Shown piece after piece: positions 21,396 through 43,746 of a DNA stretch of 64,000 bases. Both the position numbers and the translations under genes were made by a program. This stretch comes from Candidatus Altiarchaeota archaeon (GTDB lineage: Archaea; Altiarchaeota; Altiarchaeia; IMC4; SCGC-AAA252-I15): the NCBI GenBank assembly GCA_043800705.1, contig JAZDMS010000024.1, positions 1-64,000 of the forward strand, written 5' to 3'. The notes under the pieces are model-generated. The model was not told the DNA's origin, did no database searches, and worked only from the letters and a program-made list of their open reading frames with translations. The stretch's first letter is position 1, and every line of letters starts with the position of its first letter.

Positions 21396-21500
21396 CAGAG
21401 ACCTAGGACAGGAGACCGAAGACTAGAAAAAGAAGACTGAAAACAGAAGACTGAAAACAGAAGACTGGAAACAGAAGACTGGAAACAGAAGATTGAATAG
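21396..21500. repeat. Degenerate heptamer tandem repeat (NGRARAC, about 15 units; 14-bp period AGAAGACTGRAAAC)
   Basis: cgaagac tagaaaa agaagac tgaaaac agaagac tgaaaac agaagac tggaaac agaagac tggaaac agaagat. Confidence 0.9.
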
Positions 21501-26034: not shown

Positions 26035-26871
26035 ATGGAATCTGTTGAAATCCGTTCCGGCTTCTTCGCAGTCGGGCTCGCCCTGCACATCCCCGAGCAC
26101 GAGACACTGGTTTTCTCCGACGCCCACCTCGGCTATGAAGAGGCCCTCAACAAGGACGGGGTTCTGGTGCCCCGATTCCAGTACCGGCAGATAGCGGACC
26201 ATCTGAGGGAGGTCCTCGCCCAGACCAGACCAAAACGGATCGTCATCGACGGCGACCTAAAGCACGAGTTCGGCAGCATCAGCGGCCAGGAATGGGCCGA
26301 GGTCATGAGGTTCCTCGACGAGCTCAGAAGATACGAGGTCATCCTCGTAAAAGGCAACCACGACACCATCATCGGCCCGATAGCGACGAAGAGCAACGTC
26401 AAAGTCGTCGACCAATACGTCTTAGGCACTACACTGTTCGTCCACGGCGACAAGGAACCGAAGACCATAGACCGAAGACTGAAGACCGGCCTTTTAAGGC
26501 CGGCGAAGGAGAGACATTCGGCTGCAGCCTCAGTCTCTCAGACTAAGGACTTACTGTGTGAACTGGGGGATAAACGCTCATCCCGCATAACTGAAAACCG
26601 AAAACTGAAAACAATCGTCATCGGCCACGACCACCCCGCCGTCGGCCTCACCGAGGAGGGCCGCACCGAGAGGGTGAAATGCTTCCTCGTCGGAAAATGG
26701 AAGGGATACGACCTGGTAGTCCTGCCTTCGTTGAGCTTCGTCACCGAAGGCGTCGACGTGCTGAAGGAGGCCCTCTTGGGCCCGATGCTTCAGGGGGACA
26801 TTTCCGACTTTACGGCGTTGGGATTCGATGGCGGCAGAATCCTCAAATTCGGGACTATAGGGCGGATTTGA
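26035..26871 (+). CDS. Metallophosphoesterase (Lhr-associated MPE/ICC-like) with a 42-aa in-frame insertion
   Basis: SDAHLG, DGDLKH, KGNHD, HGD, GHDHP. Confidence 0.92.
   Translation: MESVEIRSGFFAVGLALHIPEHETLVFSDAHLGYEEALNKDGVLVPRFQYRQIADHLREVLAQTRPKRIVIDGDLKHEFGSISGQEWAEVMRFLDELRRYEVILVKGNHDTIIGPIATKSNVKVVDQYVLGTTLFVHGDKEPKTIDRRLKTGLLRPAKERHSAAASVSQTKDLLCELGDKRSSRITENRKLKTIVIGHDHPAVGLTEEGRTERVKCFLVGKWKGYDLVVLPSLSFVTEGVDVLKEALLGPMLQGDISDFTALGFDGGRILKFGTIGRI
26471..26612. mobile_element. In-frame palindromic insertion (126 nt) bounded by 16-nt direct repeats
   Basis: ACCGAAGACTGAAGAC (26471-86) and ACCGAAAACTGAAAAC (26597-612), 14/16 identical; internal hairpins CCGGCCTT/AAGGCCGG, GAGAGAC/GTCTCTC, GGGAT/ATCCC. 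Confidence 0.65.
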
Positions 26872-35302: not shown

Positions 35303-36529
35303 TTAGGGGCATTCTGCGACACCGTCCACTTGCAGCCCATAATTCACCGCTTGCGTAACAGCAGAGGCCGGTAGGTGATATATGCCAGCATCCCCATAGC
35401 CTGCTCCCCAGCTGTTTTGGATGGTGAAGGTGCTTGTCGACGGATCGTATCCGACTATTACTACTGCGTGGCCGCATGGGGAATAGCCCGGCGCGCATGG
35501 ACCTGAGTATCCGTTATAGGTTCCGTCTCCGTCGTCCCAATCGTTGTAGTTCCAATTTAGGGATATGATTACTGGGCCTGATGAGAGGGCAGTTTGTATG
35601 GATGCGGAATTGTCAGCTACAGTATGGGCTCCTGTGACGTAGTATTTTGGGTCGCAGCCGGACGTGTCTATTGGGCAAGACGCAGTTGCGGGGTTAGACG
35701 AACCGACGCATGAATCTGTCACGAGGGCGCTTGTCGAACAGTCCATCTGTTGGGAAAGGACACTTGCGGTATTGGCTCCGGCTTGTAGGTTCCCGTTTAT
35801 CGAGCATGCCAATGCTGCCTCATTCAAAACGTTCGCTTGGCCGCAGTCGGAGTTTATGGCTGCGGTCACTGCAGCTTCTATCGCATGAGCGTAACACGTG
35901 CCGGTATTGTCCTGGTCCTGTATGCCATCAATACCGCTTGGGCAATTAAGCGAAGTGAGGGGTAGGGTAGTTGGGGGTGAAGTAGTAGACGTGGATGTGG
36001 TTGAGGGGGACGTAGTCGGAGGCGAAGTAGTGGGCGGAGAGGTCGTAGGTGGAGACGTAGTCGGAGGAGAAGTCGTTGGGGGGGAGGTAGTCGGAGGAGA
36101 AGTAGTGGGCGGAGAGGTGGTCGGCGGAGAAGTAGTCGGCGGAGAGGTCGTTGGGGGAGAGATAGTCGTTGGTGTAAATGGAAGAGTTGTCGAGGGAGGC
36201 GCCGGACCATTCGGGCAGTCTCCGATGAACAGGTTGAAGGGGGTCATCCCGGCGACGGCTACGACTATCTTGACGCAGATGATCCCTGTCAGGCCCATCA
36301 TGAGGTATTTTTTGGCAAGCAGCCTCTGTTTGCGGTCTTCAACCGCAGTTATGTAGGTTATCCCTCCGACGATAAAAAAGGCGAATGTTATGAGGGGGGC
36401 CACCTGGTCCACGAGTTTCATCAGGCAGGCGACTACATGCCTTGAGTCCGTCACGGGATTTCCAGTCAATGCGGAACATGCTGAGCCCAGCAAAATGACC
36501 AACAGAAGGGTAAACACCGGCCGATTCAC
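35303..36529 (-). CDS. Papain-like (C1) cysteine protease fused to an N-terminal TrbC/VirB2-pilin-like membrane domain
   Basis: DQDNTGTCYAHA (Gln/Cys), GHAVVIVGY (His), QNSWG (Asn); N-terminal TM-GGITY...RKQR..AKKY-TM; GTG start. Confidence 0.85.
   Translation of the reverse strand: MNRPVFTLLLVILLGSACSALTGNPVTDSRHVVACLMKLVDQVAPLITFAFFIVGGITYITAVEDRKQRLLAKKYLMMGLTGIICVKIVVAVAGMTPFNLFIGDCPNGPAPPSTTLPFTPTTISPPTTSPPTTSPPTTSPPTTSPPTTSPPTTSPPTTSPPTTSPPTTSPPTTSPSTTSTSTTSPPTTLPLTSLNCPSGIDGIQDQDNTGTCYAHAIEAAVTAAINSDCGQANVLNEAALACSINGNLQAGANTASVLSQQMDCSTSALVTDSCVGSSNPATASCPIDTSGCDPKYYVTGAHTVADNSASIQTALSSGPVIISLNWNYNDWDDGDGTYNGYSGPCAPGYSPCGHAVVIVGYDPSTSTFTIQNSWGAGYGDAGIYHLPASAVTQAVNYGLQVDGVAECP
35965..36173 (-). 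repeat. Coding 15-nt repeat, (PPTTS) x about 10 linker
   Basis: Synonymously diverged PPTTS codon repeats. Confidence 0.9.
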
Positions 36530-41490: not shown

Positions 41491-43746
41491 ATGAAACTGA
41501 GCAGTATGAATGCATTTTTGATATCCGGAATAATATTATATGCTTGCCTGACACCGGCTTCAGCCCTGTCGAGCAACTCCAATCTCGGCTTGAGCAACCT
41601 CCAACTTGTCACGACGACCACGACCCTAAAGAGCTCCCTGGCAAGCGACATCGCCAGACAGAATATCAAGCCCCTGCTGGACTGCCCCGACGTCGAATGG
41701 AAGAAAGAAGACTGCCACGTCCAGGGCATGAACTACACCACATCCACCGACAAGGACGGATGCCCGGTGATCTACTGCGTATACAATGCGGCGACGACGC
41801 TGCGCATAATCAAGCCGATTCCTCTCCTAGTCACGACGACGACAGTGCCCCCCCAATGCCCCGACGCCGATGCGGCAATCAAGGCATGCGCCGCGAAAGG
41901 CCTGGGATACTCCAAATACTACACGGGGGCATGCACGATGATACAGTGCGCGCAGACAACGTCGACCACGGTGTCGGGCGGAAACTGCCCCGACGTCCAG
42001 AGCCAGATGGAGGAATGCAAAGCCAAAGGGGGGCAGATCAGCCGAAGATACGACGAGAACAAGTGCGTCGTCATTGACTGCACGACCCAGACGGGTACGG
42101 ACTGCCCAGCCGCCGCTGACATCGAGAGGACAATCTCAGGATGCAAGGAGAAGGGCCTCGACTACGTCACCTACGAGAAGGGCGGGTGCAGGTACGCCGA
42201 ATGCGTGCAGCCCACAAACTGCCCAAGCGAAGGCGACCTCGAGTATGCGATCAGAAAATGCAAGGCCGCAGGCAAGGATTACCAGACCTACGCGGACCAG
42301 AACGGCTGCAGGCAGGTGAAGTGCGTCTCTCAGACGCCATGCCCTACAGACGAAGATAACAAGAGGAGGATCGAGGAATGCAGAAAGGAGGGGAAGGGCT
42401 ACGCGATGGTACCCACGGGCGCCGCCTCAACCTATGCGGTCGCCTACATTCCGTGTTATAGGGTTGAGTGCGTCGACGGCAATCCGGTGTGCCCATCCAT
42501 AAAGGACGACATCGAAGCCTGCAGGAAACAGGGCGCAGAGTTCGAATACTACGTCGACGAGAACAAATGCGAGAGGGCGAGGTGCCTGCCCAAACCCGAC
42601 GGATGCCCACCCAACTGCCCCACCGACGACGAACTGAAGGAGATGATCCTCAAATGCGAAGCCAACGGGATGGGTTACGAATTCTACACGGGAACGCCTA
42701 CGACCGCCGCACTGTTGGCCCAGACGTCGCAGAGCTGTCGCAGGGTCAGGTGCGTCCAGAAGGCATGCCCGTCCGATGCGGAACTCGAGAGGATCGCAAA
42801 GGACTGCGCGGCCAAGAAGCTCCAAGCCCAGACTTACGAGGGCGAAGACGGCTGCAAATACATGCGTTGCACCCAGGCTAGAGACTGCCCGCCCTACGAG
42901 GTCACGGACGAGATCGTGAAGGCATGCAGGGAGAAGAAGCTCGATGTCGAATCCTACGTCGACGAGAAAGGGTGCAAGAACGTCCGATGCAGGGAGCCCG
43001 ACAGTGTACCGGCGGTCGAATGCAGGAAGACGCTCAAAGGAGACTGCGTGATAGTCTCATGCAGCGACGGATACACTTTCGACAGCTGCAACCCTCAGGG
43101 CGTATGCCCCCAGGTGGAGTGCAAGAGGTTCAAGGACGAGAAGGGCTGCATGATCAAGCGATGCACCGACGGATCGGGAAGTCGCGAATGCCCCGACCAG
43201 GGCACGCCGGTAGAGTGCGAGATCGTGAAGAGGGACGACGGATGCCTCGTGAAGAAATGCTCCGACGGCAAGGAATACGTCAGCTGCCCGACGAGCACCG
43301 ACTGCAGGGACTACGTCGACGATAAAGGCTGCAAGGTCCGCGAATGCGCGGACGGCACGAAGGAGCGCGTATGCCCCGACGGCAGCCAGGAGCTCGAATG
43401 CAAGGTATACACCGACGCTGCAGGATGCCAGATAAAGGAGTGCACCAACGGCTACATGGACTCAACATGCGACAAGGCGCCCTCATGCAAGGAAAGCAAA
43501 GAAGGCGACTGTACGGTCAAGACATGCGATGACGGATCCGTGACAAAGGACTGCCCAAAGGGCGAAGACGTCGAATGCAGGACATATATGTCAGACGACG
43601 GCTGCAAGGTGACGGTATGCACCGACGGCAAAGAGGACAAAGTCTGCTCCGACATGGGAACGACCACGACGAGCCTGCGGTCCGGGCAGGAGCCGACCCA
43701 GGCAGGCGGCTGGCTCAGCGGATTCGTCAGGAGCCTTGGATTATGA
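41491..43746 (+). CDS. Secreted, extremely Cys-rich repeat protein
   Basis: Signal peptide; repeats CP...C(K/R)..G..Y..Y.D..GC....C, then EC...D..GC.(I/V)K.C.DG....C. Confidence 0.85.
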   Translation: MKLSSMNAFLISGIILYACLTPASALSSNSNLGLSNLQLVTTTTTLKSSLASDIARQNIKPLLDCPDVEWKKEDCHVQGMNYTTSTDKDGCPVIYCVYNAATTLRIIKPIPLLVTTTTVPPQCPDADAAIKACAAKGLGYSKYYTGACTMIQCAQTTSTTVSGGNCPDVQSQMEECKAKGGQISRRYDENKCVVIDCTTQTGTDCPAAADIERTISGCKEKGLDYVTYEKGGCRYAECVQPTNCPSEGDLEYAIRKCKAAGKDYQTYADQNGCRQVKCVSQTPCPTDEDNKRRIEECRKEGKGYAMVPTGAASTYAVAYIPCYRVECVDGNPVCPSIKDDIEACRKQGAEFEYYVDENKCERARCLPKPDGCPPNCPTDDELKEMILKCEANGMGYEFYTGTPTTAALLAQTSQSCRRVRCVQKACPSDAELERIAKDCAAKKLQAQTYEGEDGCKYMRCTQARDCPPYEVTDEIVKACREKKLDVESYVDEKGCKNVRCREPDSVPAVECRKTLKGDCVIVSCSDGYTFDSCNPQGVCPQVECKRFKDEKGCMIKRCTDGSGSRECPDQGTPVECEIVKRDDGCLVKKCSDGKEYVSCPTSTDCRDYVDDKGCKVRECADGTKERVCPDGSQELECKVYTDAAGCQIKECTNGYMDSTCDKAPSCKESKEGDCTVKTCDDGSVTKDCPKGEDVECRTYMSDDGCKVTVCTDGKEDKVCSDMGTTTTSLRSGQEPTQAGGWLSGFVRSLGL

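Follow-up and report, generated by a model that had tools for sequence, protein, structure and literature searches.

A two-hairpin repeat family of the Altiarchaeota and the probable insertion of one copy, with target duplication, into a metallophosphoesterase gene

The window analysed here, a stretch of 64,000 nt of contig JAZDMS010000024.1 from a Candidatus Altiarchaeota archaeon, raises the question of how a metallophosphoesterase gene came to hold 42 additional codons between two of its catalytic motifs, and what this segment does to the gene and its product. The 278-residue protein scores above the curated cut-offs of both NCBIfam TIGR00024 SbcD_rel_arch (159.8 bits vs 115.2), where the insert splits the match into two stretches, and Pfam Metallophos PF00149 (44.8 bits vs 21.5), and thus belongs to the SbcD-related archaeal metallophosphoesterases. 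All 33 columns that are invariant in an alignment of 51 sequences are intact, with residues D29, H31, G73, D74, G107, N108, H109, D110, H137, H198 and H200 retained, and the motifs DxH, GD, GNH(D/E), H and GHxH, which we take to be the metal-binding motifs of these enzymes, are all present. The reading frame carries neither a frameshift nor an internal stop. As the earlier note on this DNA had observed, HGD (residues 137-139) and GHDHP (residues 197-201) are 57 residues apart.

An orthologue alignment had been proposed in the earlier note as the place where an empty site should become visible, and this is what the comparison with relatives revealed. Searches with tblastn in the genomes of 40 relatives detected the gene in 23, and 21 of these 23 matches consisted of two pieces, query residues 1 to about 145 and about 189 to 277, lying adjacent or at most a few codons apart, as at 41606-42040 and 42041-42307 of contig C62 in G001. 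A 22nd relative shows the empty site in a shorter frame, and the insert is absent in all 22 relatives whose match reached the site. The single piece found in G015, in a frame of 137 aa, ends at residue 115, upstream of the site, and therefore says nothing on it; G037 gave a weak fragment alone, and the match in G039 likewise came in two pieces. Most frames among the two-piece matches and G039 measure 235-258 aa, with three longer ones (263, 278 and 310 aa), against 281 here. Ten aligned orthologues have their gap precisely at GLLRP...RKLKT. The 119 other best homologues in a large protein collection, of which the closest named ones are labelled 'Candidatus Altiarchaeota/Altiarchaeales archaeon' (about 50% identity), also lack the insert and measure 193-269 aa, the length of 278 aa being found here alone. 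A scan of metagenomes with the protein as query returned distant relatives alone (57% and 48% identity), without the insert.

The anatomy of the segment between 26446 and 26612 is summarized in Table 1. Two direct repeats, ACCGAAGACTGAAGAC (26471-26486) and ACCGAAAACTGAAAAC (26597-26612), are identical at 14 of 16 positions and start 126 nt apart. Deletion of these 126 nt yields HGDKEPKTIDRRLKTIVIGHDHP and brings the motifs to the spacing of the orthologues, in which 14-16 residues lie from HGx to GHxHP; both the repeats and the typical spacing after the deletion had been described before and were reproduced. The frame used by the gene is free of stops throughout the insert, the other two forward frames contain 4 and 3, and the predicted peptide segment reads GLLRPAKERHSAAASVSQTKDLLCELGDK. 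The predicted RNA fold of the insert has a minimum free energy of -43.1 kcal/mol (z = -2.06 vs shuffles) and consists of the three hairpins that the earlier note had reported, the third lying within S_down at about 26564-26587. The same note had called the insert palindromic; the repeated unit is no palindrome of terminal inverted repeats but a two-hairpin module with a precise 5' end.

Table 1. Coordinates of the phosphoesterase gene and of the parts of its insert in the window.
Feature	Position	Strand	Description
Metallophosphoesterase gene (SbcD-related, archaeal type)	26035..26871	+	Intact 278-codon ORF, 278 aa; interrupted by the in-frame insert
S_up, putative upstream copy of the duplicated target	26446..26486	+	Codes GDKEPKTIDRRLKT; last 16 nt (26471-26486) form the first direct repeat
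E core	26487..26543	+	Hairpin 1, GCGAAGG, hairpin 2, CAGA; first 57 nt of the insert
Hairpin 1	26486..26503	+	Arms CCGGCCTT / AAGGCCGG; inverted repeat with 8-nt arms, 100% complementary
Hairpin 2	26509..26539	+	Predicted from the fold; lower stem 26509-26515 pairs with 26533-26539; upper stem GGCT..AGCC
Variable 3' tail of the window E copy	26544..26565	+	BLAST finds the tail itself alone; unique in the genome
S_down, putative downstream copy of the duplicated target	26566..26612	+	Codes GDKRSSRITENRKLKT; contains the second direct repeat (26597-26612)

The similarity of the insert to repeats elsewhere in the genome, on which the earlier note had made its reading depend, is borne out by the 57-nt core, which belongs to a repeat family here named E. 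By BLAST the core matches contigs C25, C10, C19 and C42 of the same genome, where a motif search also detected it again, and a covariance model built from 21 copies of five genomes (R1) matches it with 62.7 bits (E-value 1e-18). The copies consist, in order, of hairpin 1 (SRRCCTT-loop-AAGGYYS), the spacer GCGAAGG, hairpin 2 and a closing CUGA or CAGA; hairpin 2 has a lower stem of 6-7 bp whose sequence varies, then the internal loop (A)UUC/UCR and an upper part that is either small or expanded. The spacer and the 3' CUGA are nearly invariant, and as a pair they might resemble a G-A motif. Across the 21 copies 94% of the cells are paired, and 10 of the 14 pairs have changed on both sides (4 of 7 in hairpin 1 and 6 of 7 in hairpin 2), values that none of 500 shuffles matched; the signal is lost when the partners are slid against each other. 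The 3' tails are each unique in the genome by BLAST and are not common to the copies.

R1 revealed 13 real copies in the genome of the window and matches in 35 of the 49 genomes of the order, which is probably Altiarchaeales, representing 20 of its 26 genera, with up to 39 copies per genome (39 in G036, 25 in G003 and 16 in G040); beyond the order, 2 of 12 genomes of the same phylum gave weak matches. A pattern scan over all species genomes gave, among the matches listed, mostly chance bacterial ones. Although 48 viral contigs fit the 5' pattern, the best of them reaches a model score of 24 bits vs 35-74 for true copies, and a viral origin of E was rejected for want of a convincing viral copy. 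Scanning of the window with Rfam 15 gave no match, the best being a glycine riboswitch at 16.7 bits (gathering threshold 32, E-value 1.4), which we judged to be chance; at eight further E loci only the neighbouring tRNAs matched. Bacterial promoter and terminator scans stayed at chance level. No description of E was found in the literature searched, the supplements of PMC11602168, which may list Altiarchaeum MITEs, not included.

Some copies are embedded in larger arrangements. In G036 (L171-L175, e.g. L172:250-700), E and a second hairpin module, GUGUGCUUGAGCCCC...GGGGCGAAACACAC, which resembles a kink-turn hairpin, make up tandem units about 121 nt long. In G003 (L036, L039), E stands 3' of tRNA-Met and tRNA-Gly and is followed by a common module of about 65 nt with two more hairpins. 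Expansions of 50-60 nt occur within hairpin 2 of some copies, and within hairpin 1 of the copy at the ABCE1 gene of G003.

The genomic setting of E is dominated by tRNA genes. Of the 13 copies in the genome of the window, 7 have a same-strand tRNA gene less than 200 nt downstream, copies in other genera precede tRNA-Ile (G026), tRNA-Met (G005), tRNA-Thr (G036) and tRNA-Asn (G006), and some copies of G003 lie directly 3' of a tRNA or 5S rRNA. Furthermore, nearly all copies are bracketed by a direct duplication of the local sequence, whose upstream copy ends 0-5 nt from hairpin 1; a flanking direct-repeat score of at least 18 was reached by 8 of 10 copies in the genome of the window vs 3 of 400 random sites. 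Their recognisable length, a lower bound, lies between about 12 and more than 148 nt, and at several sites the duplicate is still seen at the protein level where the DNA match has faded. At tRNA genes the leader is duplicated along with the first 10-28 nt of the tRNA; at the ABCE1 gene the duplicate extends from the ribosome-binding site as far as codon 49; where E lies at the end of a gene (a LeuA-like gene, an RNase Z gene and one other), the last 15-35 codons have been duplicated together with the stop; and where a stop and a start overlap, both genes stay intact next to a duplicate of 52 nt. G000 and G001 have E and the duplication at the end of the LeuA-like gene and G003 has neither there, hence the duplication comes with E. 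The orthologous copies at ABCE1 have an upstream duplicate of at least 148 nt in G000, 50 nt in G001 and about 12 nt in G003.

ABCE1 is an essential gene, and E lies just inside or before its start in these three species (G000 C19:19950-20180, L004; G001, L031; G003, L233). The truncated upstream frame continues across E and ends either 8 nt ahead of the true ATG or in an ATGA overlap with it, an arrangement that would allow translational coupling.

Against this background, the account we consider probable for the phosphoesterase gene is the insertion of an E copy together with a target duplication and with the reading frame kept. A small, non-autonomous, structured repeat would have entered a loop-coding stretch between motifs IV and V, accompanied by a direct duplication of its target as at the other E sites, so that E (79 nt) and the duplicate (47 nt) would together account for the 126 nt added. 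As 126 is a multiple of three and the frame used is the sole one without stops, the gene stayed open. The window repeat, taken by its score, is at chance level: the score of 11 is equalled or exceeded at 25 of 400 random sites, and in a tighter local test the observed score was reached by 32 of 2000 shuffles. Its meaning derives from the duplication pattern of the family and not from the score itself, and like the duplicates at other copies it abuts hairpin 1. The peptide coded before E resembles the peptide coded after it, as read from the translation. Because the repeat abuts hairpin 1 and the flanking peptides are alike, E proper can be placed at 26487-26565, with S_up and S_down as the putative target copies; their extension beyond 18 nt is inferred. 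The two 16-nt repeats would then be the recognisable, well-kept part of a longer and diverged target duplication, of which 16-18 nt can be clearly recognised and about 45 nt were probably duplicated.

The target itself contains heptamer repeats. Positions 26457-26488, mostly within S_up, read as 4.6 heptamer units ACCGAAG, and S_down holds 3.4 heptamer units (26589-26612). In G017, which belongs to another genus, the orthologue (L017, G017:C89) has an identical 24-nt heptamer stretch, ACTGAAAACCGAAAACTGAAAAC, at the same position of the gene and no E; the stretch codes PKTENRKLKT, of which TENRKLKT, like the 24 nt of heptamer DNA, is found unchanged in S_down. Orthologues from the window's own genus do not have ACTGAAAACCGAAAACTGAAAAC. 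The shared stretch suggests that E was inserted within or beside a heptamer array which occurs repeatedly at this position of the gene.

Such arrays are frequent: the genome of the window holds 51 arrays of at least three tandem heptamers GARRACN (GAAAACY or GAAGACY), and the reversed-sequence control holds none. Those of the window lie at 21418-21497, 26457-26488 and 26589-26612, and others in G000 at C25:69857-69933, C16:5462-5580, C33:4-164 and C12:76856-76988. Many are palindromic about a centre such as GTCTTGACG; some stand upstream of tRNA genes, and some lie in coding frames, where 3 units make 7 codons. On the minus strand of G000, at C24:1772, ARAGORN predicts a 'tRNA-Stop' (anticodon TTA) with an intron of 99 nt, preceded by a heptamer array and a hairpin-GGGGATAG motif; this could be a miscall or a suppressor-like tRNA. 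A separate tandem repeat, at 35966-36168 of the window, has nested periods of 15, 30 and 75 nt, the unit GTAGTCGGAGGAGAA... and up to 10.5 copies.

At the protein level, the earlier note had suggested that modelling might place the insert in a surface loop, and the AlphaFold2 model of the 278-aa protein (mean pLDDT 87) agrees with this. Means over blocks of 10 residues are at least 85 outside residues 141-190 and fall to 39-54 across 151-190, a stretch that sits between the strand 133-136, which ends at H137, and the strand 193-196, which leads into GH198DH200. The model fits a disordered loop between motifs IV (H137) and V (GH198DH200), tolerated at the surface. Most likely, then, translation of the 42 extra codons would give a disordered surface loop, tolerated by the enzyme. 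The motifs of a splicing Hint domain were not found and Pfam recognised Metallophos alone in the 278-aa protein; a Hint domain needs more than 42 aa, for which the insert is too short, so that an intein does not account for it.

Contigs of a related strain bear on whether the loop is all that the insert provides. In the sediment-metagenome runs X2, X3 and X4, which come from at least two studies and of which X2 and X4 represent one sample, contigs cover positions 26356-26646 without gaps at about 92% identity; among the sequencing runs listed for the region, none is of RNA. They contain 21 differences in 268 nt (about 8%). Among the differences with a listed position, 15 fall in the 77 nt of 26393-26469 vs 2 in the 124 nt of 26470-26593 (Fisher p = 1.4e-5); the two insert differences, at 26553 and 26565, leave the 57-nt E core unchanged. 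Four further differences of the X2 contig (record 8), whose positions are not listed, could fall within the insert, so the true contrast between insert and flank could be a little weaker. A neutral loop that is simply tolerated would be expected to diverge no less than the neighbouring codons, and the pattern hence indicates constraint on the nucleotide sequence or homogenisation among copies. It is likely that the insert has a function at the nucleotide level.

This leads to the alternative that E is primarily a functional RNA or DNA element (a protein-bound small RNA, a processing signal or a regulatory signal) and that the phosphoesterase copy is kept for its action on the mRNA, with the loop as a by-product. 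We hold this reading to be possible, at a tentative level, and it overlaps partly with the account of insertion plus duplication. It is favoured by the scarcity of changes in the insert and their absence from the core, by the compensatory changes that keep the structure across an order, by the near invariance of the GCGAAGG spacer and the 3' CUGA, and by the retention of E at the 5' end of ABCE1 in three species while the upstream duplicate shrinks from at least 148 to 50 to about 12 nt. However, no Rfam family matches E, the counts of G-U and A-C pairs (7 vs 14) favour neither strand as the functional one, the four differences of record 8 could lie in the insert, and gene conversion among E copies could equally keep the sequence uniform.

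A second alternative is that the insertion inactivated the enzyme, leaving a young pseudogene in which the open frame is fortuitous. The insert separates two catalytic motifs, and the combination of a length divisible by three with one open frame out of three has a chance of about 1 in 9, so that the open frame is weak evidence of selection. Yet none of the 33 invariant columns, metal-binding residues included, has been lost, the ORF shows no frameshift or stop, and the insert is common to strains about 8% apart, where none of the listed changes of the insert-carrying contig (records 8 and 12) creates a stop codon; the one change of W to a stop belongs solely to a separate, partly listed contig (records 9 and 17). 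We regard inactivation as improbable, and continue to favour insertion into a gene that would have stayed functional.

Removal of the insert, either after transcription as a bulge-helix-bulge intron or by other splicing, or from the DNA, had been offered in the earlier note as the alternative to protein innovation. Archaeal bulge-helix-bulge introns occur in tRNA, rRNA and cbf5 mRNA. The insert resembles them as a structured intervening segment of an archaeal gene whose repeat family is linked to tRNA genes, and its flanking direct repeats would permit scarless removal. Contrary to this proposal, a scan of the junctions for two 3-nt bulges with a 4-bp helix between them gave 0 candidates where 300 shuffles gave 1.7 on average, the two junctions are not paired with each other in the fold, and the direct repeats cannot form the exon-exon helix required, which makes a bulge-helix-bulge unlikely. 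E copies, moreover, lie outside mature tRNA sequences and are accompanied by duplicated 5' tRNA fragments, whereas bulge-helix-bulge introns lie inside. DNA lacking the 126 nt was likewise not seen, the contigs of the three runs being uninterrupted and no joint that skips the insert being reported. Excision at either level is therefore very unlikely. An assembly artefact, in which metagenome assembly or binning would have placed a repeat in the gene by mistake, is hardly credible even for a source assembly of 43 contigs and 87.6% completeness and for repeats, which are prone to mis-assembly, because independent contigs of X2, X3 and X4 cross both junctions at about 92% identity and have the same arrangement.

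Insertion with target duplication can be compared with several known systems. Rickettsia palindromic elements (RPE) are short hairpin-forming repeats that land in frame in protein genes and add a peptide to the product. The earlier note had likened the insert to these as a case of repeat-driven formation of a new peptide segment, and the empty site, the repeat kinship and the modelled loop make this a fair description. In-frame insertions of miniature elements (MITEs) are also reported for Coxiella (PMC5896051). E is like both in being short, hairpin-forming, non-autonomous and multi-copy, with many dispersed, short, non-coding copies (13 in the genome of the window; 35 of 49 genomes), and in adding an in-frame peptide at a tolerated place. 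Unlike them, it is archaeal, is precise at its 5' end and variable at its 3' end, and is concentrated just upstream of tRNA genes; terminal inverted repeats were not found in it, the copies sharing hairpin 1 at the 5' side alone and differing at their 3' ends, and the target duplication is not short and of fixed length but varies from about 12 to more than 148 nt.

Among archaea, Candidatus Altiarchaeum hamiconexum has the highest density of cMITEs, 146 per Mb, according to PMC11602168. Being small, repeated and non-coding, present in the same phylum and high in copy density, E resembles these archaeal MITEs, which are, however, defined by terminal inverted repeats and a short, fixed target duplication, neither of which E has. 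C/D-box sRNAs carry a box C (RUGAUGA) near the 5' end, a box D (CUGA) near the 3' end and internal C'/D' boxes. An identity of E as a C/D-box sRNA was considered on account of the CUGA or CAGA after hairpin 2 and was rejected, as no conserved RUGAUGA is found and no Rfam snoRNA scores above threshold. In Pyrobaculum calidifontis a 'MITE-like' family of C/D-box sRNAs has been reported (PMC6009581). With SINE-like elements and retroposed small RNAs E shares a structured multiplying unit, a fixed 5' and a ragged 3' end, variable duplications and the link to tRNA units; it differs from SINE-like and C/D-box families in having no box C and in tails that are neither poly(A) nor common to the copies, and from SINEs in that a search of five genomes of the genus (G000-G004, 70-92% complete), in which the positive controls matched, found no reverse transcriptase (PF00078).

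The traits that bear on the mechanism are the precise 5' end, the variable and unique 3' tails, the long and variable duplications and the bias towards tRNA genes in the same orientation. In a putative scheme, E would be transcribed, usually within pre-tRNA leaders, its transcript with a fixed 5' end would be copied into a staggered break in the manner of a SINE, and those copies would survive in which the duplication leaves a whole gene or, as in the phosphoesterase, an open frame. Such spread by RNA copying is our preferred guess; the genus genomes without PF00078 and the 3' tails, unique rather than common, speak against this route, and DNA transposition of E by some enzyme is about as likely. 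A more far-reaching and rather speculative proposal is that E is a previously undescribed archaeal small RNA whose fixed-5'-end transcript would be copied into staggered breaks without a canonical reverse transcriptase, that the long duplications would supply a host promoter, usually that of the tRNA gene, and that purifying selection would act on its nucleotides even inside a protein frame, so that the core in the phosphoesterase gene (26487-26543) might be functional RNA and protein part at once.

In-frame repeat insertions are already known in bacteria, and what is new here is the repeat family E behind the insert: an order-wide archaeal element with a conserved two-hairpin fold and a strong preference for the 5' side of tRNA genes, whose target duplications exceed those of known prokaryotic transposons in length by an order of magnitude and also vary more. 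Taken together, these traits indicate that E either inserts by a mechanism not yet known or represents an unrecognised class of tRNA-linked small RNAs in the Altiarchaeota, to our knowledge a phylum without cultured model organisms. The phosphoesterase copy provides a natural test case for whether one element can serve as RNA unit and protein segment alike, and it also bears on how long duplications let insertions spare essential genes.
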